From assembly GCA_963665695.1 (NCBI GenBank), contig OY762427.1, forward strand, positions 627,268-691,267: 64,000 nucleotides of DNA. Reading direction: 5' to 3'. This document shows positions 2,732-50,722 of this stretch, piece by piece. The notes beneath the pieces were generated by a model. It was not told where the DNA came from. It worked only from the letters and a program-made list of their open reading frames with translations, and made no database searches. The stretch comes from Alphaproteobacteria bacterium. Its GTDB lineage: Bacteria > Pseudomonadota > Alphaproteobacteria > Bin65. Position numbers and translations under genes: made by a program. Each line of letters begins with the position of its first letter. Within the stretch, counting starts at the first letter, position 1.

Positions 2732-3370
2732 ATGAAAATCCGTACAGACTTTTTCGCCTTCATCACGGTGGCCGCCGCGGCGCTGGTCGGCGCCCCGGCC
2801 GCCCAGGCTGTTGAGATCGACGCAAAAAAACTGATCGGCCACGCCTACTTAAAAAAGGCTGGCGCTGTGAAGAACAAGAAATTGAGTTTCGCCCAATTCC
2901 AAGACTATAACCGGTTGATTTTCTATGTTCATGACCGTAACGGGGACGGAGTCCTTGATCTATCGGAGATGCCGAGCGACTTGCTGGGACCCACGTCTCT
3001 AAAAGCCACGCTTATGGGTTCTTATGACGTACCATGGGTTATGCGCGTGCTGCGTTCGATGCCGTACCGGGAATATACCAACTTTATGACCGGAAAATCT
3101 TGCTCCCTTAAAGAAATTGCAGTCGAGAATTTTCTTATCGGCCCTTACGGAGTATGGCCCAAGTTAGAGGACTGGAAAAAAGAGCAGTTTCGGCGTGAAA
3201 AAGCCGCCCTTCTCCAGCTTCTCGATGCCAAAAAAGACTTCAAAGTGCCCGAAAAGGAATTTCATCTCGTTATGAACCTGGCGTTCCACCAGTTCGATAA
3301 AAACAAGAACGGAGTGCTCGAAAGCGACGAGCTTCCGCATGTTTCCGGTATGTTTGCCCTCGGCGGCTGA
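2732..3370 (+). CDS. Secreted EF-hand-like protein with atypically low GC
   Basis: ATG at 2732 is preceded by GGAGGAGAGA. Signal peptide (AAAALVGAPAAQA). Two EF-type loops (DRNGDGVLDLSE, DKNKNGVLESDE). The mature-domain DNA is visibly AT-richer (~47% GC) than the flanks (~68%). Confidence 0.7.
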   Translation: MKIRTDFFAFITVAAAALVGAPAAQAVEIDAKKLIGHAYLKKAGAVKNKKLSFAQFQDYNRLIFYVHDRNGDGVLDLSEMPSDLLGPTSLKATLMGSYDVPWVMRVLRSMPYREYTNFMTGKSCSLKEIAVENFLIGPYGVWPKLEDWKKEQFRREKAALLQLLDAKKDFKVPEKEFHLVMNLAFHQFDKNKNGVLESDELPHVSGMFALGG

Positions 3371-3387
3371 GGACTCCGGGAACCGGC

Positions 3388-4053
3388 GTGCGTGCCACCG
3401 CCCTGTCCGCAGCGCCCTTCGCCCCGGCGCAGGAGCCTCCGTCCCGGATGACGCCGTCCGGGACGCCTGCGCGGCCGGCGGCCGACAAGGCGGCCATTGC
3501 CGCCGATGCGGCGCTGATGGGCCGTGTCGTTGCGGGCGATCCGGCCGCCCACCGCGCGGTCGTGGACCGGCATCTGCCCGGCCTCGTCGCCTTCGCCTGG
3601 CGCCTGGCCGGCGACCGGGCGACCGCCGAGGACGTCGCCCAGGACGCCATGCTGAAACTGTGGCGCCAGGCGCCGCGCTGGAAGCCGAAGTCGCAGATCG
3701 GGACGTGGCTGCGCCGGGTCGCCTACAACCGGTGCATCGACCTGCACCGCCGGGCGCGGCCGGGCGAGGACATCGCCGGCCTGGACCTGGAGGACCCGGC
3801 CTCCGGCCCGGAGCGCACCCTGCTGGCCCAGGAAGTGTCGGCCATCGTCCGCCGGGCCCTGGCGGCGCTGCCCGACCGGCAGCGCGCGGCCATCGCCATG
3901 GTCCATTTCGACGGGATGAGCAACGGCGAGACCGCGGCGGCCCTCGAAGTCAGCGTCGAAGCGGTGGAATCGCTGCTGGCGCGCGGACGGCGGACGCTGC
4001 GCCAGCGCCTGACGGCCCTGAAACCGGACCTGCTCGAGGAGTTCGTATCGTGA
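3388..4053 (+). CDS. ECF (sigma-70 family) RNA polymerase sigma factor
   Basis: Region-2 and region-4 like blocks: AEDVAQDAMLKLW and a C-terminal HTH (LPDRQRAAIAMVHFDGMSNGETAAALEVSVEAVESLLARGR). The start may instead be the ATG at 3448. Confidence 0.8.
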   Translation: MRATALSAAPFAPAQEPPSRMTPSGTPARPAADKAAIAADAALMGRVVAGDPAAHRAVVDRHLPGLVAFAWRLAGDRATAEDVAQDAMLKLWRQAPRWKPKSQIGTWLRRVAYNRCIDLHRRARPGEDIAGLDLEDPASGPERTLLAQEVSAIVRRALAALPDRQRAAIAMVHFDGMSNGETAAALEVSVEAVESLLARGRRTLRQRLTALKPDLLEEFVS

Positions 4054-4063
4054 GGACCGCGCC

Positions 4064-4570
4064 ATGACTGCAAACGGGACCGCAAACGGGACCGAACCGG
4101 GCAGGGAAGCGGCCGTCCGGGCCCTTGAAGACCTGCTCGGCGCCTACGGCGCCGATCCGGCGCGCTGGCCGGCCGGAGACCCGCGCCGCGCCGCCGCCTG
4201 GGCGCTCATCGACTCCGGCGACGCGGCGGCGCTGCAATCCCTGGCCGCCGCCCGCGCCCTGGACCGGGCGCTGGACAGCACGGTTCCGCCCGCGCCCTCC
4301 GCCGCGCTGGCCGGGTCGGTTCTCCAGGCGGCGCGGCGGACCCGGCCGGGGTTGTCCGGCTGGGCCGGCCCGATCTGGAATCCCGCCTTCTTCAAACCGG
4401 CGGGCGCCTTGGCCTGCGCCATGCTCCTGGGGATCGCGGTCGGCATGTGGTCGCCGGCGCCGGTCTTCGTCTGGAGCGCGCAGGCGGACGGCCTGGAAAC
4501 CGAACTGGCGTCCCTCGGCGCGCTAGACGGCAACGGCGACGATAACGGCTTCGAGGATTTCGCCGAGTGA
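4064..4570 (+). CDS. Anti-sigma factor (single-pass membrane protein)
   Basis: ATG follows GAGGA 11 nt after the sigma-factor stop. One predicted TM segment (ALACAMLLGIAVGMW). Position immediately 3' of the ECF sigma gene. Confidence 0.55.
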   Translation: MTANGTANGTEPGREAAVRALEDLLGAYGADPARWPAGDPRRAAAWALIDSGDAAALQSLAAARALDRALDSTVPPAPSAALAGSVLQAARRTRPGLSGWAGPIWNPAFFKPAGALACAMLLGIAVGMWSPAPVFVWSAQADGLETELASLGALDGNGDDNGFEDFAE

Positions 4571-5061
4571 CGCGCCGCACGCTCATCGTTCTGCTGATCG
4601 TTTCCGGCGCGCTGAACCTGTTCCTCGTCGGGATCGTCGCGGCCAGCGTCATCGTTCATTGGGGCGGGCCGGAAACCGCGCGCGGCCCCGGCCCGCGCAC
4701 GGCCTTCCGCCTGTACCGCGCGGTCGACGGCCTCGACGAACCGGAGCGGGCGCGCGCCCGCGCCCTGCTGGAAGAGAAGCATCCGCAGATCCGCGCCAGG
4801 ATCCAGGCCATCCGCGCCGCGCGGCGGGACCTCAGGCGCCGCATCCGCGACGGCGCCGTATCGCCCGAAACGGTCGAGTCCGGCTTCCGCAGCCTGCAAC
4901 GGGCCCGCGGCGAAGCCCAGGCGGCCCTGCATGCCCTGGTCCGGCAGATCGCCGAGTCCCTGACGCCCGACCGGCGCCAGCGCTTCTACAGCCAGGCCTA
5001 CCGGCCGCGCGGCAAGAAACACAAGCGGCGCAAGGGCGACAGGGGCGAAAGGCGCGAGTAA
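4567..5061 (+). CDS. CpxP/Spy/ZraP-like periplasmic protein (LTxxQ family), membrane-anchored
   Basis: ATGA overlap with the anti-sigma stop. N-terminal TM helix. LTPDRRQRF (LTxxQ-type) motif. Basic C-terminal tail. Confidence 0.55.
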   Translation: MTRRTLIVLLIVSGALNLFLVGIVAASVIVHWGGPETARGPGPRTAFRLYRAVDGLDEPERARARALLEEKHPQIRARIQAIRAARRDLRRRIRDGAVSPETVESGFRSLQRARGEAQAALHALVRQIAESLTPDRRQRFYSQAYRPRGKKHKRRKGDRGERRE

Positions 5062-5075
5062 GGCCGGCGCCCGCC

Positions 5076-6098
5076 CTACGCCGCCGCCAGGGCGTTGAAG
5101 GCGGCGAGCGAACCCTCGATCGCGGCGCGGTCCATATCCTGCACGATGAAGACGATGCGCGAGCGGCGGTCGCCGTCGGGCCAGCCGCTCATGTGGGTCG
5201 GCGGATGGACGACATGCTGGACGCCGTTGATCAGCACCGGATCGGCGACGCCGGCGACGTTCAGCATGCCCTTGACGCGCAGGACGCGCTCGCCGTGGCG
5301 GTTCAGCAGCATGCTCATCCACAGGCCGAACGCGGTCCAGTCCATCGGCCCGTCGAACCGCAGGCAGAAGGAGCCGACCCCGTGGCTGTGGTCGTGGGTA
5401 TGGTCGGGGCCCTCGCCGGACGCCCCGGCGAAACCGTCCAGCCAGCCGGCGACCTCGCGCCGCTTGCCGCCGGGCGCGTAAAGGCCGCCGGTCAGCAGGG
5501 CGTCGGGATCGAGCGGTTCGGCGTCGAGGTCGAGGACCGGCGCGGCGGCGTTGATGTTGCGCACCGCGGCGCGGGCGGCCCGGCCGCCGTCGTCCGCCAT
5601 CGCCGATTTGGTCAGCACGAAGCGGTCGGCGATCGCCGCCTGCTTGACCGATTCGGGATGGCGCTGCAACTGCGCCGCCCCGTTCACCGCGTCGACCGCG
5701 GTGACGACGCCGCCGAGCCGGAAATGATGCTGAAGCACCGGCTCGGCGAGGATCGTATAGGCGATGGGCGTCGGGTCGGCGAGGCCGGACGTCTCGATCG
5801 CGATCCGCCGGAAGGCCGGGATCTCGCCGCGCTCGCGCCGGGAGAACAGGCCCCTCAGCGCGCCCTGCAAGTCGCCGCGGATGGCGCAGCACAGGCAGCC
5901 GCCGGCCATCGGGAGCACACTTTCTTCGGCATGTTCGATCAGGTGATGGTCGAGTCCGACCTCGCCGAACTCGTTGATGAGGACGGCGGTATCGCGCAGG
6001 GCGGGCGATTTGAGCAGCCGGGCCAGCAGGGTCGTCTTGCCGCTGCCGAGGAAACCGGTGACGATGTCGACCGGGATCAGCGTGTCGTAGACAGTCAT
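5076..6098 (-). CDS. COG0523 family GTPase (CobW/ZigA/YeiR-like metallochaperone)
   Basis: P-loop GFLGSGKTT, the GGCLCC CxCC metal motif, a His-rich stretch (HTHDHSHG) and a CobW C-terminal-like domain. Confidence 0.85.
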   Translation of the reverse strand: MTVYDTLIPVDIVTGFLGSGKTTLLARLLKSPALRDTAVLINEFGEVGLDHHLIEHAEESVLPMAGGCLCCAIRGDLQGALRGLFSRRERGEIPAFRRIAIETSGLADPTPIAYTILAEPVLQHHFRLGGVVTAVDAVNGAAQLQRHPESVKQAAIADRFVLTKSAMADDGGRAARAAVRNINAAAPVLDLDAEPLDPDALLTGGLYAPGGKRREVAGWLDGFAGASGEGPDHTHDHSHGVGSFCLRFDGPMDWTAFGLWMSMLLNRHGERVLRVKGMLNVAGVADPVLINGVQHVVHPPTHMSGWPDGDRRSRIVFIVQDMDRAAIEGSLAAFNALAAA

Positions 6099-6487: not shown

Positions 6488-7582
6488 TCAGGCGAGCACC
6501 GATTCCGGCCGCGCCGCGCCTTCGCGCGGATAACGCTGGATGAAATCGTCGGCGATCTCGTCGAAGGTGCACCAGCGCACGCCGGGATGCCGGTCGATAT
6601 ACTCGAACACCCGCTCCAGCATGAGCAGGACCTGCGGCCGGCCCGAGACGTCCGGGTGGATGGTCAGCGTGTAGACCGCGTAGTCGTATTCCCGGTAGAC
6701 CCAGTCGAACTGCTGGAGCCACAGGTCCTCGATATCGCGTGGGTTGACGAAGCCGAAGCTGTTCGGCGCCGACTTGATGAACATCATCGGCGGCAGGTCG
6801 TCGAGATACCAGCTGCCCGGAATGTCGACCAGGTCGGTCTCGACGCCGCGCACCAGCGGCTTCATCCATTCCTCCGCCTTCTTCGAATAGTCGATCTTGG
6901 TCCAGTTGTCGCCGACCCGGGCGTAGAAGGGGTGGAAGTCGTTGTTCATCAGGCTGTGGTCGTACTTGATGCCCTTCTTCAGCAGCAGCTCGTTGGTGAT
7001 CGGGCTGAACTCCCACCAGGGCGCGACATAGCCGGTCGGCCGGCGGCCGGAGAGCCGCTCGATCAGCTCGATGCACTTGTCCATGACCGCCTCTTCCTGC
7101 TCCGGGGTCATGGAGATGGGATTCTCGTGGGAATAGCCGTGCATGCCGATCTCGTGGCCGGCGTCCACCACCATTTTCATCTGTTTCGGGAAGGTCTCGA
7201 TCGAATGGCCGGGGATGAACCAGGAGGTCCGGATGCCGAACTTGTCGAACAGCCGGACCATGCGCGGCGAACCGATTTCGCCGGAGAACAGGCCGCGCGA
7301 GATGTCGCAGGGCGAATCCTCGCCGCCGTAAGAGCCGAGCCAGCCGGCGACCGCATCGACGTCGACGCCGATGGCGCACAATATGTCCTTCTTGCCGCCG
7401 CCCGAGGCCGCCGAGGCCGGCGCGGGGCGGTTGGGCGCAGCCAGCGGCGCGCCCCCGCCGGGCGCCCGGCCGTCCCGGTCTATCAGGGAGCGCGGCCGGT
7501 AGCGCGGCCCGATGCCGCCGGAAGCGCGGGCGCCCCGCATCGAATCGTGGTTCCTGTCGTCGCTCATGTCGTCCTCGTCCAT
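6488..7582 (-). CDS. Polysaccharide deacetylase (NodB-fold) family protein, PuuE/allantoinase-like
   Basis: NodB-type motifs ([25 protein letters not shown]). Low-complexity N-terminus. The real start may be the ATG at 7567, which has GAGGA 5 nt upstream. Confidence 0.75.
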
Positions 7583-13234: not shown

Positions 13235-14080
13235 CTAACGTTTCTCCAGTATCCCCTTGATTTCGTCCATCTGGCGCTGGAGGGCTTCCATACGCTGGAT
13301 CAGGGCGGAGGCTTCGGCCTCGGTGACCGCGTGCATCTCCGCCTTGAGCGCGGCGGATTCGGCCTGGCTCTGCTCGGTCATGGCGTTGACGATCACGGCG
13401 ATGAACAGGTTGATGACGGCGAAGCTGGTCATCAGGATGAACGGCACGAAAACCATCCAGGCGCCGGGATACTGCTCCATCACCGGCCGGACGATGCCCA
13501 TGGACCAGCTTTCCAGGGTCATGATCTGGAACAGCGAATACATGCTGTCGCCGACCGTGCCGAACCAGTCGGGGAACGCCTTGCCGTAGAGCTTCGTCAC
13601 CATCACGGCGAAGACGTAGTAGACCAGCGCCAGCAGGGCGATCACGCTGGAGACGCCGGGGATCGCCGCCATCAGCGCCATCACCACCTTGCGCATCGAG
13701 GGAACGATGGCGACCAGCCGCAGGACGCGCAGGATGCGCAGGGAGCGCAGGACCGCAAGATCGCCGCTCGCCGGCGCAAGCGCGATGCCGACGATGATGA
13801 AATCGAAGACGTTCCAGCCGTTGGTGAAATAGCGCCAGCCGAAGGCGAACAGCTTGGCGAGCAGTTCGGCGACGAAGATCGCCAGCACGGCGTCGTCGAG
13901 GAACAGGAGCAGCGGCCCGGCCCGCTCCGTGACGCTTGCCGAGGTTTCCAGGCCGAGGGCGATCGCGTTGAACACGATGACCGCGGTGATCGCGCGCGTC
14001 ACCCGCGGGCTCTCCATGAAGACGCCGACCCGGCGGCGCACCCGGTTGAGCGGCGAGGTCGGCTCCGGCAGCGCGGTCAC
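13235..14080 (-). CDS. Bacterial voltage-gated sodium channel, BacNav/NaChBac family (paralog 1)
   Basis: Six-TM architecture. S4 with Arg every third residue (LRSLRILRVLRLV). Selectivity filter TLESWSM, as described for NavAb/NavMs. C-terminal coiled coil. GTG start, with GTGA overlapping the stop of paralog 2. Confidence 0.85.
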   Translation of the reverse strand: MTALPEPTSPLNRVRRRVGVFMESPRVTRAITAVIVFNAIALGLETSASVTERAGPLLLFLDDAVLAIFVAELLAKLFAFGWRYFTNGWNVFDFIIVGIALAPASGDLAVLRSLRILRVLRLVAIVPSMRKVVMALMAAIPGVSSVIALLALVYYVFAVMVTKLYGKAFPDWFGTVGDSMYSLFQIMTLESWSMGIVRPVMEQYPGAWMVFVPFILMTSFAVINLFIAVIVNAMTEQSQAESAALKAEMHAVTEAEASALIQRMEALQRQMDEIKGILEKR

Positions 14081-15072
14081 GGCTTGTCCGCCAGCAGGGA
14101 CTTGAGTTCGCGGATCTCGGCCTTGAGCGCGCCGATCTCCGCCGTCAGCTCCCCGGTCTGGGCGTCGACCTTGTCGCTCAGGGTCTCCGTCCGCGCTTTC
14201 GCTTCCTCGGTCAGCTTCATGGTCTGCTCGGCGATGTCCTGTTCAAGCGTGTCGCGGGCCTCTTCGAGATCGTAGGCCTGCTGCTCCTGCATGGCGTTGA
14301 CGATCACCGCGATGAACAGGTTGAGCACGGCGAAGCTGGTCACGAGGATGAAGGGCACGAAGACCAGCCAGGCGTTCGGAAAGGTCTCCATCACCGGGCG
14401 GACGATGCCCATGGACCAGCTTTCCAGGGTCATGATCTGGAACAGGGAATACATGCTCTCGCCGACCGTGCCGAACCATTGCGGGAAGGTTTCGCCGTAA
14501 AGGCGGGTGGCGATCACGGCGAAAATGTAGAAGACCAGCACCATCAGCATCATGATCGAACTGACGCCGGGAATGCTGGCAAGCAATGCCATCACCACCT
14601 TGCGCATGGCCGGCACGATCGAGACCAGCCGCAGGACGCGCAGGATGCGCAGCGCCCGCAGAACGGAAAACGCCCCGGCGCTCGGCGCCAGCGCGATGCC
14701 GACGATGACGAAATCGAAGACGTTCCAGCCGCGCCGGAAGAAGCCGAGCGGCCCGAAGGCGACCATCTTGAGCAGGATTTCGGCAACGAAGACGGCGAGG
14801 ATGATCCGGTCCAGCCCGGCGATCAGCCCGCCGGCGTGGGCCATGGCGACCTTCGAGGTTTCGAGGCCGAGGGTGAGGGCGTTGACGGCGATGAGCGCGG
14901 TGACCGTCCACTGGAAGTGCGGCCCGTCGATAACGGCGCGCAGCCGGCCGCGCAGCCCGGCCGCGTCGGCGGCGGGCTCCTTCGAGGCCTCCGGTCCTTT
15001 CTTGTCGGCGCGGCTCCGGCCGGCCGGCGTCTCGCCCGGCCTGATGGCGCCGACCCAGCGACGGGCTCTCAC
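14077..15072 (-). CDS. Bacterial voltage-gated sodium channel, BacNav/NaChBac family (paralog 2)
   Basis: Same architecture (S4 LRALRILRVLRLV, filter TLESWSM, long C-terminal coiled coil). Start placed at GTG 15072, which has GGGAGA 9 nt upstream. The listed ORF start at 15309 would overlap the divergent YHS gene, and that extra N-terminus is low-complexity. Confidence 0.8.
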   Translation of the reverse strand: MRARRWVGAIRPGETPAGRSRADKKGPEASKEPAADAAGLRGRLRAVIDGPHFQWTVTALIAVNALTLGLETSKVAMAHAGGLIAGLDRIILAVFVAEILLKMVAFGPLGFFRRGWNVFDFVIVGIALAPSAGAFSVLRALRILRVLRLVSIVPAMRKVVMALLASIPGVSSIMMLMVLVFYIFAVIATRLYGETFPQWFGTVGESMYSLFQIMTLESWSMGIVRPVMETFPNAWLVFVPFILVTSFAVLNLFIAVIVNAMQEQQAYDLEEARDTLEQDIAEQTMKLTEEAKARTETLSDKVDAQTGELTAEIGALKAEIRELKSLLADKP

Positions 15073-15289
15073 CCCGGATTCTCCCTTGCATACCGACTGT
15101 GGCGGGATCGGTCGTTCGACGGCCCGTGTTTTAGACGGCGCGGGCGGCAGATCAACCCGGACGCCGCGTCGCGCACGGATAGCGGCGCGATCCGGCCTCA
15201 CAGCCGCGTCGAACGGTTTGGGCTGAATTCCCGGTTCGCCATACCCATATAACACACCGAACCGATCCCCCGACCGCAGGGAGCCTCCG

Positions 15290-15760
15290 ATGACCCCGAC
15301 TCGCCGCATCTTTCTCGCTGCCGCCCTCGCCGCGCCGATCGCGGCCGTTGCGGGCTATTACGCCGTGGCGCCGGCCACGGCCGCCAAGCCGGAAATCTTC
15401 GCGCCGGACGGCAAGGCGATCCGCGGCTACGATCCCGTGGCCTATTTCACCGAAGGAAAGCCGGTCGCCGGCAAGCCGGAATTCACCCACAAGTGGAAAG
15501 GCGCGACCTGGTATTTCTCCAGCGCCGCCAACCGGGACAGGTTCGGGAGCGACCCCGGACGCTGGGCGCCGCAATACGGCGGCTACTGCGCCTACGGCAT
15601 CGCCCAGGGCTATGCCGTCAAGATCGAGGTCGACCAGTGGTCGGTCGTCGACGGCAAGCTCTACCTCAACTACGACCGCAGCGTGCAGCGGACCTGGAAA
15701 CGGGACATTCCCGGTTATATCCGCAAGGCCGACAGGAACTGGCCGGGCGTGCTGAAATAG
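15290..15760 (+). CDS. YHS-domain protein with Tat-type signal peptide
   Basis: RRIFLAAALAAPIAAVAG signal, followed by repeated YHS/TRASH-like Y..KW/Y..Y motifs. Confidence 0.7.
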   Translation: MTPTRRIFLAAALAAPIAAVAGYYAVAPATAAKPEIFAPDGKAIRGYDPVAYFTEGKPVAGKPEFTHKWKGATWYFSSAANRDRFGSDPGRWAPQYGGYCAYGIAQGYAVKIEVDQWSVVDGKLYLNYDRSVQRTWKRDIPGYIRKADRNWPGVLK

Positions 15761-21053: not shown

Positions 21054-21833
21054 CTAGGGCGCGTGCAGCCAGGCGGCGGGATCGCCGGATTCGGGGCGGA
21101 AATAGACGACCGTCCGCTCGCTGGCCGTCGCATCCCGGCGCCACGGCGCGATGCCGTGCAGGGCGAGCCGGTGCGCCAGATACGCTTCGCCCCGGCCGGC
21201 CGTCAGCGTCACGCGCCGGCATTCCGCGAAAATGCGCCGGCGGACCGCGCGGTAGACGTCCGTAACGTCGATATCGCGCCATGCCGCGGGCGGCCGGTCG
21301 CCGAAGGCTTCGGCGAAGGTTTGCCGCACGATGCGGTGCGAACCTTCCCAGAGGACGAAGGGAGAGGCCGCCGCGTCCGCCGGGCCGACCGGCAGGCCGA
21401 GGATGAAGCGGTGATGCTCGCGCAGGAAGCGGCGGCGCTTCGGCCCGGCCGGCAGCAGCCCGTCGACATGGGCGGCGTCGCGCCGGCGGCGGTAGGCGAA
21501 GGCGGCGTCGCTCTCGTCCCGGTCCTGCTGCGGATAACCGGGCCGGCAGACCGAGACCTGGGCCCGGTCCCAGTCGAAGGGCCCGCCGGCCAGCGCTTCG
21601 GCGAAGCGGACGGCCGCGCCGCCGAGCGGCGGACCGCCGGCGACCGCGCCGGTTGCGTCGTTGGGGAGCGCATTGACCCCGGCGAACCAGGTGCCGCCGC
21701 AGCGATGCCACCGGCCGAAGGCGGGATCGGAGACGCTGCGGCGGGCCGCGGCCTCGCTCGCGTCGAGCCAGTCCAGAACCTCCGGATCGACGCCGAAGCG
21801 GGTCCAGCCGCGTTCGAAAAATTCATCGGTCAT
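21054..21833 (-). CDS. Hypothetical protein (possible non-haem Fe dioxygenase-like fold)
   Basis: 259-aa ORF immediately upstream of the AOR gene on the same strand. Has HVDG and LWEGSH motifs. No confident family. Confidence 0.45.
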   Translation of the reverse strand: MTDEFFERGWTRFGVDPEVLDWLDASEAAARRSVSDPAFGRWHRCGGTWFAGVNALPNDATGAVAGGPPLGGAAVRFAEALAGGPFDWDRAQVSVCRPGYPQQDRDESDAAFAYRRRRDAAHVDGLLPAGPKRRRFLREHHRFILGLPVGPADAAASPFVLWEGSHRIVRQTFAEAFGDRPPAAWRDIDVTDVYRAVRRRIFAECRRVTLTAGRGEAYLAHRLALHGIAPWRRDATASERTVVYFRPESGDPAAWLHAP

Positions 21834-22159
21834 TTCGGGTTCGTCCCGGACCGCGTTGGCCGGATTGGCGAGGGAGCCGGCCCGGTCCTGCGCCCCTGTC
21901 TTTGAGGATTCCCCTGCGAAGGGCCGTGCGCCGGGCCGGCTCTCATAAATATTTCCTCTTTATCGACAATATTCCTTGACATCGCAGGTCCAGCGCCCAA
22001 TATCGGCCCGGTCAACGCCCGAAATGCGCCTGCCGCGGCCGCCGGCCGGCCGGGATTCTGGAAAAATTCCTACAAAAATAACTTTTGTGCACTTCCGAAG
22101 GGTGTTTTTCCAACGATTCCAAAGAATTAGGCCCGCCGGGTGTAAAAAAACATATTTTA

Positions 22160-22195
22160 TTGAACATTCATTAAAAATCCGGCCGTTTTCCGGCG
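22160..22195 (-). terminator. Possible intrinsic terminator downstream of kynA
   Basis: On the minus strand, a short GC stem (CCGG..CCGG) followed by TTTTT, within a locally AT-rich stretch. Confidence 0.25.
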
Positions 22196-22215: not shown

Positions 22216-23181
22216 TTACAGTTCCGTCCGCACCGCCCAGAGTTCCGGGAACAGGCGGATGGTCGTCGCCCTGGTGAGGTAGCCGACGCCGCTGGTGCCG
22301 CCGGTGCCGATCTTGTGGCCGATCACCCGCTCGACGGCGTTGCGGTGGCGGAAGCGCCAGGTCTGGAACAGGTCGTCCATGTCGATCAGGTCCTCGGCCA
22401 GCTCGTAGAGCCCCCAGTGCTTGTCGCTGTTGAAGTAGATGTCGCGCCAGGCGGCCATCACGGATGCGTTGTCGTCGCGCTTCTGCGACCAGTCCCGGTC
22501 CAGCACCCCGGCGTCGATGGCGTAGCCGCGCCGCGCCAGCAACATGACGGCCTCGTCGTAGAGGCTCGGCCGTTCGAGCAGTTCCGTGAGGCGTTGGGCG
22601 ATTTCCGGCCGGTGATCGAAGGTGCGGATCATCGCCCGGTTCTTGTTGCCGAAGATGAATTCGATCGAGCGGTTCTGGAACGACTGGAAGCCGGAGGACT
22701 GGCCGAGCCCGTCGCGGAAGGCGAGATAGTCGGCCGGCGTCATGGTCGTCAGGATGTGCCAGGCCTGGATCAGGTTTTCCTGGATGCGCTTGACCCGGGC
22801 GAAAATCTTGAAGGCGGGCCGGAGATCGTCGTTGCGGATGTGCGGGAAGACCGCCTCCAGCTCGTGCAGCATGAGCTTCATCCACAGTTCCTTGACCTGA
22901 TGCAGGATGAAGAACAGCGCCTCGTCGTGCTCGCCGGTGATGACCGGCTGGGCGTTGAGGATTTTGTCGAGTTCGAGGAAATCGTGATAGCTGCGCTGGC
23001 CGCCGAGGTCGGCATGGTAGGATTCGCCGGCGAAGTCCTCGCCCAGCGCAGTCGCGCCGCGGGTCTGGGCTCCGGTCCGACCGGGGGTCCGACCGGGGGT
23101 TCGACCGGGGGTTCGACCGGGGGTCCGAACGGGGGTCCGGGAGGCGCCGGGCCGCGCCGTGTCGCCGTCACCGTCCGTCAT
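22216..23181 (-). CDS. kynA: Tryptophan 2,3-dioxygenase
   Basis: TDO core blocks: SYHDFLELDKIL, FFILHQVKELWMKL, GTGGTSG. Start at ATG 23181 with an upstream GGAAGGAGAG RBS. The N-terminal tail carries a (PGRT)x5 repeat. Confidence 0.85.
   Translation of the reverse strand: MTDGDGDTARPGASRTPVRTPGRTPGRTPGRTPGRTGAQTRGATALGEDFAGESYHADLGGQRSYHDFLELDKILNAQPVITGEHDEALFFILHQVKELWMKLMLHELEAVFPHIRNDDLRPAFKIFARVKRIQENLIQAWHILTTMTPADYLAFRDGLGQSSGFQSFQNRSIEFIFGNKNRAMIRTFDHRPEIAQRLTELLERPSLYDEAVMLLARRGYAIDAGVLDRDWSQKRDDNASVMAAWRDIYFNSDKHWGLYELAEDLIDMDDLFQTWRFRHRNAVERVIGHKIGTGGTSGVGYLTRATTIRLFPELWAVRTEL
23074..23139 (-). repeat. 12-bp tandem repeat (GGTCCGACCGGG-like, ~5.5 copies) inside kynA
   Basis: The repeat is directly visible in the DNA. 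It is in-frame and encodes RTPGRTPGRTPGRTPGRTG in the N-terminal tail. Confidence 0.7.
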
Positions 23182-23381
23182 GGTCTCTCCTTCCCGCGTG
23201 TGCAGCGTTTCCCGCCGGCGCCGGGCGCCCGAATCGCGCCCCAATCGCATCCCAATCGCATCGGGGCGCGCCGCGCCAAGATTGCCGGTTTCTCGGCGCC
23301 AGCATATCCGATACAAACCCCGCCGGGTACGAAATCGCGCCGGCGCCTGCCGGGTCCCGCAGACTTCAGGGAGAAAGGCTC

Positions 23382-46007: not shown

Positions 46008-47903
46008 ATGCCAGCCCGCCTGATCCAGACCAACACCGCGCCGTTCAAGAAGGTCGAGGTCGATCCCGTCACCCTCGACATCATCGAGAACGCGATGCGC
46101 AACGCGCGCACCGAGATGGACGCCGTGCTGTTCCGCACCGCCATGTCGCCCGGCATCCGCGAGCAGCACGACGCTTTCCCGATGATCGCCAACGCCGAGG
46201 GCAAAATGGTCGTCGGCCAGTTCGGCTCCTTCTTCTGGGGCTTCCAGCAGGGGTACGACGGCGAGATCGAGGAAGGCGACGTCTTCCTGACCAACGATCC
46301 CTATTCCTGCAACGGCGCGGTCAGCCATCTGAACGACTGGCTGACCATGATGCCGATCTATATCGAAGGCCGGATCGTCGCCTGGGCCGCCATGTTCGGC
46401 CATATGACGGACATCGGCGGCAAGGTGCCGGGCAGCCTGCCGACCGACGCGGCGCAGATTTTCGAGGAAGGCATCCAGATCCCGCCGGTCAAGATTTACC
46501 GCAAGGGCAAGCTGAACGAGGAAATCCTCGAACTCATCCTGCGCAACTGCCGCCTGCCGGACTGGAACCGCTCGGACTTCAACGCCGTCGTCGCCGCCCT
46601 GCGCCTGGCCGAGCGGCGGGTGCACGAGATGGCCGAGCGCTTCGGGGTCGACGAGCTCAACGCGGCGATGGCCGAGATGCTCGACCGCAACAAGCGGGCG
46701 ATGAGCGCGATCCTCCAGATGGTGATCCCGGAATCGCGCCAGTATTTCGAGGACTTTATCGACGACGACGGCCTCGGCATGGGCCCCTACAAGATCGCCT
46801 GCACCATGTGGCGCGAGGGCGAAAAGGTGGTCTTCGATTTCGAGGGCACCGATCCGCAGTCGATCAGCTCGGTGAACTTTCTCCTCAACGAGGAGATGTT
46901 CAAGATGTTCCTCGGCTCCTTCTTCATCAACATTTTCGACCCGCAGATCCTGTTCAACGACGGCTTCTACGACCTGGTCGACGTGCGCATTCCGCGGGGC
47001 ACCATCCTGAAGCCGGTCCGGCCGGCCGCGCTCTCTTCGCGCACCCACATGCTGGCGCGCATCTTCGACATCATGAGCGGCCTGCTCGGCCAGGGTTCGC
47101 CCGAGGCGCTGTGCGCCGCCGGCTTCTCCGACAGCCCGCACTTCATGTATTCGGGCTACGACAAGACCGGCGAATGGTATCAGCTCTACCAGATCGGCTT
47201 CGGCGGCGTGCCGGGCCGGCCGGCGGGCGACGGGCCGGACGGCCATTCCCTGTGGCCGTCCTTCACCAATGTGCCGAACGAGTTCCTCGAGGCCTATTTC
47301 CCGCTGCGCATCGTGAAATACGAGACGATCGCCGACAGCGGCGGCCCCGGCGCGCACCGGGGCGGCAACGGCCTCTCGATGGGCTACCAATTCCTGGAGC
47401 CGGGCGAAATCTCGATCCACGACGACCGCTGGCTGACCCATCCCTGGGGCGTCAGCGGCGGCCTGCCCGGCCGGCGCAGCACCAAGCTGATGGTGCGCGC
47501 CGACGGCTCGGAGCAGTGGATGGAGTCGAAGTGCGACCGTATCCGTGTCGAACCCGGCGACACGCTCTACTTCAACACCTGGGGCGGCGGCGGCTGGGGC
47601 GACCCGCTGGAGCGCGACGCCGAGCGGGTGGCGCTGGATGTGCGCCGCGGCCTGGTGACGCGCGACGGCGCCCGGCGCTACGGCGTGGTGCTGGATGACG
47701 ACCTGGGCGTGAACGCGCGCGATACCGGGACCCTGCGCAGCCGCATGGCGGCCGAGCGCGGCGACGTCGCCCTGTTCGACACCGGCGGCACGGTCGAGGA
47801 GCTCAAGGCGCGCTGCAAGGCCGACACCAGCCTCGATCCGCCGCGCCAGCCCGTCTTCCAGAAATGGATGCAGGCCCAGCCGATGAAGCTGGCGGCGGAA
47901 TAG
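46008..47903 (+). CDS. hyuB: Hydantoinase/oxoprolinase family, B subunit (second copy)
   Basis: Canonical HyuB N-terminus (VDPVTLDIIENAMRNARTEMDAVLFRTAMSP) and a FLTNDPY block. RBS GGGAGACAGCAGCC. Confidence 0.85.
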   Translation: MPARLIQTNTAPFKKVEVDPVTLDIIENAMRNARTEMDAVLFRTAMSPGIREQHDAFPMIANAEGKMVVGQFGSFFWGFQQGYDGEIEEGDVFLTNDPYSCNGAVSHLNDWLTMMPIYIEGRIVAWAAMFGHMTDIGGKVPGSLPTDAAQIFEEGIQIPPVKIYRKGKLNEEILELILRNCRLPDWNRSDFNAVVAALRLAERRVHEMAERFGVDELNAAMAEMLDRNKRAMSAILQMVIPESRQYFEDFIDDDGLGMGPYKIACTMWREGEKVVFDFEGTDPQSISSVNFLLNEEMFKMFLGSFFINIFDPQILFNDGFYDLVDVRIPRGTILKPVRPAALSSRTHMLARIFDIMSGLLGQGSPEALCAAGFSDSPHFMYSGYDKTGEWYQLYQIGFGGVPGRPAGDGPDGHSLWPSFTNVPNEFLEAYFPLRIVKYETIADSGGPGAHRGGNGLSMGYQFLEPGEISIHDDRWLTHPWGVSGGLPGRRSTKLMVRADGSEQWMESKCDRIRVEPGDTLYFNTWGGGGWGDPLERDAERVALDVRRGLVTRDGARRYGVVLDDDLGVNARDTGTLRSRMAAERGDVALFDTGGTVEELKARCKADTSLDPPRQPVFQKWMQAQPMKLAAE

Positions 47904-48007
47904 CTGGCGGCGGAGCTGGCGGCGGCGCGCCCGCCCCTCGACATGCCGCCGGAACCGGAAAAGGAATAATATCCTTTATATTTGAGCGATCGTTCAATAT
48001 CGAATTT

Positions 48008-48237
48008 CAGAGAATAAGGCGGGAAAACAGAGGCTTGGCCCGGTTTCCTGACCTGGACAGACCGGTCTTTCTTTTTCGTTTTTTCACGCCGCGCAGCCCT
48101 AACCCTTTGGAATCGCTGAAAAACGCCATCGGGGAGTGCCGCAAATTCCGGATTACAAGGATAATAGTCCTTGCCCGGCGACCCCCTGTCCGTTTTCCGG
48201 AGAATAAGCGGAAATACAACGGGTTGGCCGGCGTTCC
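48008..48237. repeat. Two copies of a ~40-bp motif (GAGAATAAGGCGGGAAAACAGAGGCTTGGCCCGGTTTCC / GAGAATAAGCGGAAATACAACGGGTTGGCCGGCGTTCC)
   Basis: Seen directly at ~48010 and ~48199. A third, degenerate copy sits near 48413. Confidence 0.6.
48040..48090 (+). terminator. Possible intrinsic terminator after hyuB
   Basis: Hairpin CCGGT...ACCGG (GACCGGTC palindrome) followed by the T-rich run TCTTTCTTTTTCGTTTTTTC. Confidence 0.3.
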
Positions 48238-48600
48238 GCCGACGCCGCAGGCTCCGGCGCCTGGCCGGCCTCCGTCGCCAGCCGGATTTCTCCGCTCGCT
48301 TCGCTTCGGTCGAAATGACGGGAAGGGGCTTGCGCTTCGCCCGAATCGGCGGCGCGCGGACGGCGCTCCGCACTCCCGTCATTTCGACCGGAGCCCCAGC
48401 CCGCCGGGCCGGGGCGGAGCGGAGAAACCCGGAGGGCGCTCCGTCGACGCCGCAGCCTCCGGCGTCCGCCCGGCGCCCGTCGCCGGCCGGATTTCTCCAC
48501 TCGCTTCGCTTCGGTCGAAATGACGGGAAGGGGGAGTGCTTCGGTCGAAATGACGGCGAGAGGGAGTGCTCCGGTCGGAATGACGGCGAGGGATTTCGCA
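48229..48600. repeat. ~100-bp direct repeat (two copies, ~88% identical) plus four or more copies and one inverted copy of a TCGGTCGAAATGACGG REP-like motif
   Basis: The 100-bp copies are at ~48229-48322 and ~48427-48532. Short-motif copies are at 48298, 48507, 48540 and 48562 (degenerate), with an inverted copy CCCGTCATTTCGACCGG at 48365. Confidence 0.65.
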
Positions 48601-48978
48601 GAGGGATCCTTGGGCAAGGATCAGCCGCCGGCCCGGGCGCGGCGGGCGCGGGGAACAGGGACCGGGACCGGACGGGAAAGGCGCCTGCGGGGTGCTCCCG
48701 GACGCGCTTCGAGCGCATTCCGGGCGTTGACGGGAACCGATATAGGGAACGAAAGGCGGTATTTCAAGGAAAAAAGTGAGGTAATAGGGATTTTTTGGAT
48801 TCGACCCGATATCCCGGATTTCCGCCCCAGGCGCCTGCCGCCCTCCTCTGCATTGCACGGCGGGAGGCGGTACACTGCGGCGGCTCCCGGCCGGGGCGGC
48901 GCGACATTGCCGCGCCTGCCTTGCGCCCCGGTCCGGGCCTATTTCGCGCCGCAACCCGCCGGCGCCGCCGGCCCGCGC

Positions 48979-49045
48979 GCCCGAACCGCAGACCCCGAAC
49001 CGTAGACCCCGAACCGTAGACCCCGAACCGTAGACCCCGACCGTG
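48979..49045 (+). repeat. 14-bp tandem repeat (GACCCCGAACCGTA, ~4.7 copies) abutting the ettA start
   Basis: Seen directly. The last, degenerate unit contains the GTG at 49043 and the in-frame TAG at 49031. Confidence 0.7.
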
Positions 49046-50722
49046 GACCCGAAGAAATACATCTATGTCATGAAGGGCCTGTCGAAGACCTGGCCCGGCG
49101 GCCGGCAGGTCCTGAAGGACATATGGCTGTCCTTCCTCCCCGGCGCCAAGATCGGCGTGCTCGGCCTGAACGGCGCCGGGAAATCCTCCCTGCTCAGGAT
49201 CATGGCCGGGCTGGACGACGGCATTTCCGGCGAGGCCTGGGCCGCGGACGGCGTCAGGGTCGGCTATCTGGCCCAGGAGCCGGAACTCGATGAGGCGCTG
49301 ACGGTCGGCGAGAATGTCAGGGCGGGCGCCGGCCCGCTGGCGGCGCTGGTCGAGCGGTTCAACGAGGTCTCCCTGCGCTTCGGCGAGGAGCTGACCGACG
49401 CGGAGACGGACGCCCTGATCGAGGAGCAGGCCGCGCTTCAGGAACGGATCGACGCCGCCGACGCCTGGAACCTCGACCGGCGCATCGGGATCGCGATGGA
49501 CGCGCTGCGCTGCCCGCCGGCGGACGGCGGCGTCGCCACCCTCTCCGGCGGCGAGCGGCGGCGCGTCGCGCTCGCGCGGCTGCTGCTTTCGGGGCCGGAC
49601 ATGCTGCTGCTCGACGAGCCGACCAACCATCTCGACGCCGAATCGGTCGCCTGGCTCGAGCGCTTCCTGGCGGAATTTCCCGGCGCCGTCGTCGCGGTGA
49701 CCCACGACCGCTATTTCCTCGACAACGTCGCCGGCTGGATCCTCGAACTGGACCGCGGGCAGGGCATTCCCTGGCAGGGCAACTACTCGTCGTGGCTGGA
49801 GCAGAAACAGAAGCGGCTGGAGCAGGAGGGCAAGGCCGAAGCAGCGCGCCGGCGCACCCTGGGCCGGGAGCTGGAATGGATCCGCCAGGCGCCGCGGGCG
49901 CGCCAGTCCAAGAGCAAGGCGCGGATCGGCGCCTACGAGGCGCTGCTCGCCGAAGCCGGCGACCGGGCGCCGGAGCAGATGCAGATCTGGGTGCCGCCGG
50001 GGCCGCGCCTGGGCGACATGGCGGTCGAGGCCAGCGGCGTGCGCAAGGCGTTCGGCGACCGGCTGCTTATGGACGACCTGAACTTCCTCATGCCGCCGGG
50101 CAGCATCGTCGGCATCGTGGGGCCGAACGGCGCCGGCAAGACGACCCTGTTCCGCATGATCGCCGGGCAGGAGGCGCCGGACGCCGGCACGCTCACGGTC
50201 GGCGAGACGGTGCAGCTCGGCTATGTCGACCAGTCCCGCGGCGCGCTCGACGATTCGAAGACGGTGTGGGAGGAGATTTCGGGCGGCCTGGACATGCTGC
50301 AACTGGGCAAGCGGGAGCTCCCCAGCCGCGCCTATGTCTCCAATTTCAACTTCAAGGGCGGCGACCAGCAGAAGAAGGTCGGCATGCTCTCCGGCGGCGA
50401 GCGCAACCGGGTGCATCTCGCCAAGGTGCTGAAATCCGGCGCCAACCTGCTGCTGCTCGACGAGCCGACCAACGATCTGGACGTCGATACCATGCGCGCG
50501 CTGGAGGAAGCGCTGCTCGCCTTCGCCGGATCGGTCATGGCGATCAGTCACGACCGCTGGTTCCTCGACCGCATCTGCACCCACATCCTCGCCTTCGAGG
50601 GCGACAGCCGGGCGGTCTGGAACGAAGGCAACTGGCAGGACTACGAGGAAGACCGCCGGAAACGGATGGGCGAGGCGGCCGAACGGCCGCACCGCATCGA
50701 ATACCGCCGGCTGGAGGCGTGA
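49043..50722 (+). CDS. ettA: Energy-dependent translational throttle protein EttA (ABC-F ATPase)
   Basis: Two ABC cassettes and an EttA-like N-terminus (KYIYVMKGLSKTWPGGRQVLKDIWLSFLPGAKIGVLGLNGAGKSSLLRIMAG). GTG start at 49043; the alternative ATG is at 49070. Confidence 0.85.
   Translation: MDPKKYIYVMKGLSKTWPGGRQVLKDIWLSFLPGAKIGVLGLNGAGKSSLLRIMAGLDDGISGEAWAADGVRVGYLAQEPELDEALTVGENVRAGAGPLAALVERFNEVSLRFGEELTDAETDALIEEQAALQERIDAADAWNLDRRIGIAMDALRCPPADGGVATLSGGERRRVALARLLLSGPDMLLLDEPTNHLDAESVAWLERFLAEFPGAVVAVTHDRYFLDNVAGWILELDRGQGIPWQGNYSSWLEQKQKRLEQEGKAEAARRRTLGRELEWIRQAPRARQSKSKARIGAYEALLAEAGDRAPEQMQIWVPPGPRLGDMAVEASGVRKAFGDRLLMDDLNFLMPPGSIVGIVGPNGAGKTTLFRMIAGQEAPDAGTLTVGETVQLGYVDQSRGALDDSKTVWEEISGGLDMLQLGKRELPSRAYVSNFNFKGGDQQKKVGMLSGGERNRVHLAKVLKSGANLLLLDEPTNDLDVDTMRALEEALLAFAGSVMAISHDRWFLDRICTHILAFEGDSRAVWNEGNWQDYEEDRRKRMGEAAERPHRIEYRRLEA

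Follow-up and report, generated by a model that had tools for sequence, protein, structure and literature searches.

The DNA studied here is a stretch of 64,000 nt from an Alphaproteobacteria bacterium (assembly GCA_963665695.1, contig OY762427.1, positions 627,268 to 691,267), referred to below as the window. In this window the Hydantoinase_B gene hyuB (46008-47903, + strand) and the ABC-F gene ettA (49043-50722, + strand) are separated by a repeat-dense, non-coding gap of 1139 nt (47904-49042). The comparisons reported below suggest that this island is probably an intergenic mosaic of dispersed repeat modules, chiefly hairpin units which would be divergent members of the NTS/SRM repeats recognised by an Ssn-type nuclease, and the mosaic appears to have accumulated between hyuB and ettA within a single sub-lineage of the sponge-associated 'Rhodospirillaceae'. 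REP-like (repetitive extragenic palindrome) hairpin repeats and the NTS/SRM repeats are already known; what appears to be new here is a branch whose stem is interrupted and whose loop can expand, with a doublet arrangement and reiterated half-sites.

Structure of the hairpin unit

A 16-mer, TCGGTCGAAATGACGG, was described in the preliminary description of this DNA as a REP-like element in four direct copies and one inverted copy, able to form hairpins. These copies were recovered at 48306, 48511, 48541 and 48571 (+ strand) and at 48376 (- strand). When up to three mismatches were allowed, the 64-kb window contained six matches against 0.88 expected, and no shuffle gave six; five of the six are inside the gap, and the sixth, at 2530 with three mismatches, looks like a chance match. 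The 16-mer is one arm of a larger structured hairpin unit of 27-80 nt, which was defined by fetching loci with the 16-mer and comparing them further out on either side; about half of these loci were alike well beyond the 16 bases. The consensus of the unit is 5'-G-ATTYC-T-CC-RCT-[0-50 nt]-CT-YCGG-TC-GRAAT-GACGG, in which the insert of 0-50 nt sits at the loop position and is usually a hairpin of arbitrary sequence. Read on the strand that corresponds to the sense of the NTS repeat (the NTS-sense strand), the unit is C-GTC-ATTYC-GA-CCG-RAG-[optional variable hairpin]-AG-YGG-A-GRAAT-C, and the same architecture was present in 68 units defined by regular expression.

The pairing of the two arms was supported by covariation. 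In the seed alignment of 18 units ATTTC always occurred with GAAAT and ATTCC always with GGAAT; pair 5:48 was UA in 10 units and CG in 7 and was never unpaired, and four of the five inner-helix pairs showed compensatory changes. Paired cells made up 94% of the seed, compared with 36-52% when the partner columns were slid. The two helices (P1 and P2) were 90-94% paired and covarying, so that the units have the inverted-repeat hairpin typical of NTS/SRM repeats. A covariance model was built on the seed alignment and run on the window and the fetched loci, and it gave 96 plus 83 further matches in the latter. In the alignment of 96 matches pair 5:48 was UA in 60, CG in 28, UG in 3 and unpaired in none, figures to be read with the caveat that alignments derived from a covariance model lean to the model's own structure.

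In the 64-kb window the model found three full units and two partial boxes, all of them inside the gap. Unit A (48285-48321, + strand; 42.6 bits, E=2.6e-8) has the short form, GATTTCTCC..TCGGTCGAAATGACGG, and its NTS-sense strand is the minus strand. Unit B (48376-48429, - strand; 63.2 bits, E=2.8e-13) has the long form with an inner hairpin of 10 bp, and its NTS-sense strand is the plus strand, where it reads CCGTCATTTCGACCGGAG...GGAGAAACC. Unit C (48490-48526, + strand; 41.5 bits) has the short form again. The two partial boxes are extra half-boxes (48541-48556 and 48571-48586, + strand) lying within a 30-nt tandem repeat of 2.8 copies (48508-48590, + strand), which repeats only the GRAATGAC side of the unit.

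Arrangement and distribution of the units

The usual arrangement of the units is an inverted doublet, in which a minus copy is followed by a spacer of 15-100 nt and a plus copy, with the GRAATGAC boxes pointing outward, and such doublets fold to long hairpins. The doublet of the window consists of units B and C (48376-48526), and the region around it (48370-48532), folded as single-stranded DNA (ssDNA), gave -57.4 kcal/mol (z=-4.76). Two inverted palindromic units around a spacer, able to form a hairpin, are also the hallmark of REP and REPIN elements. Unit A corresponds to the solo right half of a doublet and is preceded by the same 55-nt spacer, which is the reason for the direct repeat of about 100 bp noticed before; it was found to be 99 nt long, with one copy at 48230-48328 (the spacer plus unit A) and the other at 48435-48533, both on the + strand and 90% identical.

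The doublet has been dispersed within the lineage, since about 215 nt around it (48375-48592) were matched at 72-83% identity in four loci (L081, L046, L068 and L022; fetched loci are cited by such numbers) in which ettA and hyuB are both missing. Half-sites were multiplied preferentially on one side: a reiterated outer half-box followed 22 of 160 units (from 16 sources), versus 4 on the control side, and the 30-nt repeat of the window is an example of this. No target-site duplication was found at any of 23 doublets inspected, so that this feature of MITEs (miniature inverted-repeat transposable elements) of DDE transposons was missing although the ends are inverted. Relative to co-directional flanking genes, 33 units had the same and 27 the opposite orientation by a crude gene call, which indicates no bias.

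Among the matches listed, and judged by record title, units were present in at least 12 phyla, i.e., Alphaproteobacteria, Bacteroidota, Bacillota, Actinomycetota, Acidobacteriota, Planctomycetota, Verrucomicrobiota, Chloroflexota, Spirochaetota, Cloacimonadota, Patescibacteria and Dadabacteria. They were also present in 27 IMG/VR viral contigs, one of them a Mu-like phage. A BLAST search of the PLSDB plasmids with a consensus unit gave marginal partial matches only. The Mu-like phage (L149, with L136 and L139; IMG/VR 3300029288_000501) carries at least eight hairpin doublets in internal intergenic gaps, and its genes include a MuA-type transposase, an AAA ATPase at the MuB position, Gam and an amidase. 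A literature search for 12-mers of the unit matched only unrelated primer sequences.

Relationship to NTS/SRM repeats

The lead to the NTS came from the ATTCC...GGAAT core of the unit, which resembles the dRS3 repeat of Neisseria. Previous work showed that the NTS is an oriented repeat, CGTCATTCCCGCGMAVGCGGGAATCYRG, of which dRS3 is the inner part, and that the NTS and its relatives, the Ssn-related motifs (SRMs), flank single-domain GIY-YIG genes in many phyla, SsnA of N. meningitidis being a protein of 94 aa (PMC11893778). SsnA binds the hairpin only as ssDNA of one strand, cuts a few nt upstream of it and does not bind RNA (PMC11893778). Cleavage is governed by the three nt 5' of the NTS palindrome, and for binding no base is more critical than the C immediately 3' of it, whereas the identity of the loop is dispensable and the loop can be replaced or extended (PMC11893778).

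The unit described here keeps both determinants, namely GTC before the palindrome (GAC after GRAAT on the other strand) and C after it (G before ATTYC). Both were invariant in the 18-unit seed and at least 90% conserved in the 96 matches. In addition, two GIY-YIG genes of about 95 aa (PF01541, E about 1e-17) were found within a few hundred nt of unit arrays, and they were the only such genes in the approximately 2 Mb of fetched DNA: one in Dialister (L003, 5633-5899) beside a unit array, the other in Cloacimonadota (L103, 4372-4650), flanked by units on either side. The unit was therefore assigned to the NTS/SRM repeats, as a divergent branch of them, based on the GTC and C determinants, the insertion at the loop position and the adjoining GIY-YIG genes. 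In the Dialister locus, a stretch of 2.7 kb without long open reading frames (ORFs; 2914-5614) lies between a TonB-dependent receptor gene and the GIY-YIG gene, here of 94 aa, and contains an array (3884-5541) of units of about 80 nt in alternating orientation with a period of about 365 nt. A generic scan of the window for the pattern 'GTC-stem-loop-stem-C' gave 40 matches versus 33 in random sequence, i.e., no enrichment, and no other SRM-like family is evident in the window by sequence.

The gap in related genomes

Many proteins recorded from sponge metagenomes under the name 'Rhodospirillaceae bacterium' are 89-94% identical to the EttA protein of the window, and the same gap was compared in relatives. 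In L120 (EttA 93% identical) the order hyuA-hyuB-gap-ettA is kept and the gap is 1116 nt long. Its flanks align with the window (47804-48237 at 77% and 48568-49142 at 80%), and the half-box at 48571-48586 is orthologous to L120 3536-3551, but the centre differs, with two hairpin units in inverted orientation compared with three units and two half-units in the window. The contig of L119 (EttA 94% identical) stops within the repeats. The same gap and flanks were thus found in two independent sponge-metagenome assemblies, so that an assembly artefact, which had been considered as a possible refutation, does not explain the region. The proposal that the region is a cluster of MITE- or REP-type elements agrees well with these results, because the units form structured inverted doublets, are dispersed at other loci and vary in number and arrangement between orthologous gaps; the suggested comparison of the gap among relatives likewise showed conserved flanks with a different set of hairpin units in L120.

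In four further relatives (L121-L124; EttA 85-91% identical) eamA lies upstream of ettA and the gap is only about 100 nt. The only part of the gap kept there is 48894-49000 (+ strand; 75-79% identity), the ancestral ettA-proximal region, which presumably holds the ettA promoter and the 5' untranslated region. Therefore ettA does not need the island, and its own control region would be confined to the last 150 nt or so. In L121 hairpin units were found around clpS (2074-2112 and 2777-2908), two intergenic regions upstream of the short eamA-ettA gap, where they adjoin a phage integrase and a terminase gene.

Modules X and Y

Two further modules, designated X and Y, contribute to the mosaic. Module X (about 48054-48149; no strand assigned, as for its parts) consists of a palindrome, GGACAGACCGGTCTTTC, a T-run and the core CTAACCCTTTGGAATCG. 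The inverted repeat and T-run occupy 48054-48086, and the core of the palindrome, AGACCGGTCT, is found again in copies of the module in L014, L120 and L245, whereas L211, L271 and L217 have it in degenerate form only. The module core, CTAACCCTTTGGAATCGCTGAAAAACGCC...GCAAATTCC (48098-48149), has a second copy on the other strand of the window (22089-22151, 76% identical), and a further copy in L014 lies upstream of a gene whose start appears argG-like, judged from the first residues only.

Module Y (about 48669-48800, - strand) was found, by comparison of its copies, to contain a predicted promoter, here called P_Y (48740-48768, - strand), which is directed away from ettA. It has a -35 element CTTGAA (48768-48763), a 17-nt spacer and a -10 element CTATAT (48745-48740). 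In ten copies from eight independent contexts the spacer was always 17 nt, although the spacer sequences were unrelated; the -35 element was CTTGAC, CTTGAA or CTTGGC, and the -10 element was CTATAT except for CAATAT once and TTATAT once. The conserved hexamers and the N17 spacer fit the alpha-proteobacterial sigma-70 consensus, CTTGAC-N17-CTATAT (PMC2873474). The promoter is followed by a conserved leader of about 60 nt (GTCAACGCCCGGAATGCGC..., 48669-48733, - strand; conserved sequence GTCAACGCCCGRAATGCGCC), with a GC hairpin and a short U-rich run. The first 20 nt of the leader were near-invariant in the ten copies, and in some of them the U-rich run follows the GC hairpin. The consensus of the hairpin is mostly invariant with almost no covariation, and for this reason covariation neither supports nor refutes it.

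The window contains a second X-Y module (21926-22185, - strand), in which hairpin units are missing from the interval between X and Y and P_Y lies on the + strand (-35 CTTGAC at 21975-21980, 17-nt spacer, -10 CAATAT). It sits between a tryptophan 2,3-dioxygenase gene (22216-23316, - strand) and an unannotated gene (21054-21833, - strand), and its promoter is directed at the 3' end of the former. X and Y were also present in part in five sponge-metagenome contigs; when metagenomes were scanned with the Y core, 120 loci came up, and just 5 of these were real. None of the other X/Y copies (window 21926-22185, L014 and the five contigs) lies beside ettA or hyuB. In L183 (8815-12248) P_Y and its leader are followed by a small ORF and then by a T7-like head-tail connector gene (PF12236, E=3.5e-128) and capsid-assembly genes. 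These are T7-like portal and scaffold genes, and the promoter module is therefore common to chromosomal intergenic DNA and a podovirus-like element.

Other features of the gap and the window

The ORFs predicted in the gap, such as one translating to repeated SLRFGRNDGKG, had been regarded as spurious, and their composition leads to the same conclusion: their GC contents at third and second codon positions (GC3 and GC2) were 0.59-0.75 and 0.52-0.70, versus 0.92-0.93 and 0.43-0.45 for hyuB and ettA, and the three longest gave no Pfam match. The possibility that the hairpin units are themselves coding DNA was rejected because their lengths (27-80 nt) are not multiples of three and the gap ORFs show no GC3 bias. 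Hammerhead, twister and other ribozyme cores were rejected by eye, CUGAUGA-type cores being absent, and Rfam concurs.

Besides the hairpin units, the gap has several shorter repeats. A motif of about 45 nt, GAGAATAAG..GGAAAACA..GG.TTGGCC.GG.TTYCC, occurs at 48005-48052 and 48195-48242 (no strand assigned); the two copies are roughly 75% identical with gaps and both are kept in L120, the first also in L271 and L217. Two to three copies of it had been listed, and the third, near 48413, fails to align and belongs to hairpin unit B. A 14-nt tandem repeat, CCCGAACCGTAGAC, absent from the earlier list, is present in 5.1 copies (48980-49050, + strand) and extends into the ettA start codon, which is GTG (49043); in L119 and L120 there are about 2 copies of the repeat and ettA starts with ATG. 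No Shine-Dalgarno sequence is visible at ettA in any relative, and a database protein that is 100% identical (P0001) begins 9 codons further in, at an ATG at 49070. A 12-nt unit, AGCTGGCGGCGG, is repeated three times over the hyuB stop codon (47885-47925), so that the coding sequence for the C-terminal KLAAE is echoed twice in the 3' flank.

An AT-rich stretch with a terminator-like hairpin had also been noted. This holds in part: a weak A/T-rich hairpin, AAAGGA-ATAATA-TCCTTT, with a T-rich tail lies at 47960-47984 (+ strand), 57 nt past the hyuB stop and at a position kept in L120, and is possibly the hyuB terminator by its sequence. The AT-rich part at 48740-48800, on the other hand, is the predicted promoter, and a terminator and promoter scan with E. 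coli-style criteria made no call anywhere in the gap, 47960-47984 included.

Within some hairpin units another motif, CCCTTCG(A/G)CTTCGCTCAGGGCAGGC, is nested at the loop position and translates as 'PFD.LRAG..'. It was seen at L014 745-775, L068 1600-1640, L099 4700-4740, L106 4380-4420 and L119 1-40, is tandemly repeated in L217 at about 6800-6880, and looks like another widespread repeat. Elsewhere in the window, two segments of 640 nt (13361-13992 and 14275-14906) are 77% identical and are probably tandem paralogous genes, because both fall in adjacent minus-strand ORFs (13235-14080 and 14077-15309).

Discussion

Based on the results of this study, the island is ordinary DNA of a selfish or structural kind that also contains a single stray promoter. 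The process by which the mosaic may have arisen could be as follows. A GIY-YIG nuclease of the Ssn type (cd10448), whose gene would lie elsewhere in the 3.8-Mb chromosome, would recognise the units as ssDNA hairpins and nick the DNA a few bases upstream (5') of GTC. The units would then be spread through repair of the nicks, or through copying, in replication or DNA uptake. Nick-dependent copying or repair could also reiterate the cleavage-side half-site, producing the 30-nt tandem repeat, and unequal recombination, favoured by nicking, may have generated the 99-nt duplication. Separately from this, module Y would supply a sigma-70 promoter firing away from ettA into its conserved leader of about 60 nt.

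Several observations weigh against this explanation. The published SRM search pattern, HGTCWYN(0-2)YYVSBRHN(0-5)WNVSBRGN(0-2)RNCYNB, matched neither strand of the window; this pattern had been built by hand from 29 genomes (PMC11893778). Neither the 64-kb window nor the approximately 110 kb fetched from close relatives contained an Ssn-like GIY-YIG gene, and both initial queries of the GIY-YIG search were approximate sequences, the matches then being confirmed by Pfam. The single units of the window were thermodynamically ordinary (z between +0.9 and -0.9). On the strand complementary to the NTS-sense strand there were 18 G:T wobbles versus 6 A:C mismatches, and this excess, although it comes mostly from the outermost pair, is opposite to that expected from selection for folding of the NTS-sense strand alone. 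Moreover, the loci were chosen with the 16-mer itself, among the matches listed, and therefore the apparent conservation of the 16-mer box and the list of phyla are both affected by the choice. The window also has only one cluster in 64 kb; relatives carry copies at several unrelated loci.

Four other explanations were considered, and in order of plausibility they are REPINs moved by a RAYT, an RNA role of the units or of the P_Y transcript, MITEs of a DDE transposon, and regulation of ettA. A REPIN is an inverted doublet of imperfect palindromes around a spacer, and each type of REPIN is specific to a lineage and co-evolves with its own RAYT (PMC3337134). The inverted doublets with a spacer, the long hairpins, the alternating clusters and the missing target-site duplications all fit that definition, and the units could accordingly be imagined as classical REP/REPIN elements moved by a single-copy RAYT (a Y1 HUH transposase) encoded elsewhere. 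This is nevertheless unlikely, since a box common to at least 12 phyla is not lineage-specific and the genes beside the arrays are GIY-YIG genes. In addition, tblastn revealed no IS200-like Y1 transposase in the approximately 2 Mb of loci with an approximate TnpA query that is insensitive to RAYTs. The conserved head also differs: it is GTC in the units, while the RAYT-associated REPs of Nunvar in 2010 and Messing in 2012 are said to carry a GTAG-type tetranucleotide. The same doublets could be read as MITEs of a Mu-, Tn7- or IS21-like DDE transposon, with the box as the terminal inverted repeat and the half-boxes as transposase sites. The ends of the doublets are indeed inverted repeats often starting with 5'-TGTCATT or CGTCATT, the end box is reiterated directly in a sub-terminal position in 22 of 160 units, and many doublets lie within a Mu-like phage. 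However, those of the phage occupy internal intergenic gaps and not its ends, no doublet inspected had a target-site duplication, and the two boxes of each half covary even in doublets with unlike halves, a property not needed for a simple terminal inverted repeat. The probability of this origin is therefore very low.

An RNA function, in which the units are RNA structures and/or P_Y drives an RNA antisense to the hyuB-ettA spacer, is improbable as well, although the proposal of a small-RNA locus in the preliminary description stands as regards the consensus sigma-70 promoter on the minus strand, from which the island could yield a short non-coding transcript. The constant spacer and conserved leader of P_Y in ten copies and the G:U wobbles within the helix point in this direction. 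The units themselves, however, lie on both strands of one gap without orientation bias, and no relevant Rfam match was obtained with the gathering score for the whole window, at E<=10 for the gap or at E<=1 for nine element-rich loci. SsnA does not bind RNA (PMC11893778), the leader hairpin is nearly without covariation, and in L183 P_Y is simply placed ahead of T7-like phage genes. Least probable of all, to the point of being hardly credible, is control of ettA by the island, either through an array of sites bound by protein or as a long regulatory leader. The island does lie directly upstream of ettA, with the 14-nt tandem repeat abutting the start codon. But in relatives ettA is preceded by a gap of only about 100 nt, with nothing conserved beyond 48894-49000, L120 has other DNA in place of the island's centre, and units elsewhere adjoin unrelated genes. 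The earlier idea of a site array controlling ettA was thus abandoned; neither the island as an ettA control region nor a specific role of the units in ettA expression is supported by these comparisons. Incidental effects are possible, such as hairpins blocking read-through from hyuB or altering RNA stability.

The explanation by Ssn-recognised NTS/SRM-type units has several implications. For this window, the gap should not be taken as ettA regulation. For annotation, it accounts for spurious ORFs of the 'SLRFGRNDG...' type and for assembly breaks such as that of L119 within the repeats. It further suggests that a widespread branch, in which the stem is interrupted, the loop can expand and the units form doublets, escapes the published SRM pattern, and the turnover, dispersal and half-site reiteration described here provide comparative evidence on whether NTS-ssnA-NTS units are mobile elements. 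The bacterium is a sponge symbiont, which agrees with reports that repeats of this kind are enriched in symbionts. A wider proposal, that the unit represents a large undescribed SRM branch, bipartite and loop-expandable, and that, in view of its turnover, dispersal and half-site reiteration, Ssn-type GIY-YIG nucleases drive a class of non-autonomous mobile DNA, is put forward only tentatively and is more doubtful than the reading of the island itself. If true, it would provide a GIY-YIG counterpart of the REPIN-RAYT system, beyond the marking of DNA for restriction during transformation.

Among known systems, the NTS/SRM repeats share with the unit the oriented hairpin, C-GTC-[ATTYC]...[GRAAT]-C, a loop that tolerates any sequence or insertion, copies clustered around genes, enrichment in symbionts and, in L003 and L103, a single-domain GIY-YIG gene of about 95 aa beside the arrays. 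The unit differs from them in falling outside the published degenerate pattern, in its interrupted stem (5 bp, an internal loop and 2-3 bp) often extended by a variable hairpin of up to about 50 nt, and in being typically an inverted doublet whose cleavage-side half-site is often reiterated; in addition, no ssnA gene was seen in the window or in the fetched DNA of close relatives. The dRS3 repeats and NIME arrays of Neisseria have the same ATTCC...GGAAT palindrome core and mosaic intergenic arrays, but dRS3 is a 20-bp ATTCCC-N8-GGGAAT sequence and a phage integration target, a role not evident for the unit. REP, BIME and REPIN elements resemble the unit in their imperfect palindromes, inverted doublets forming ssDNA hairpins, alternating intergenic arrays and absence of target-site duplication, and the unit is set apart from the REPIN-RAYT system by another conserved head, by its spread across phyla and by GIY-YIG neighbours where such are present. 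Rhizobium-specific intergenic mosaic elements (RIMEs) are intergenic mosaics of alpha-proteobacteria. Like them, the island is composed of unrelated short modules (X, Y, the motif of about 45 nt and the hairpin units) that are reordered between intergenic regions; it differs from them in having no documented sequence similarity and in that module Y is a working-looking promoter and not a palindrome.

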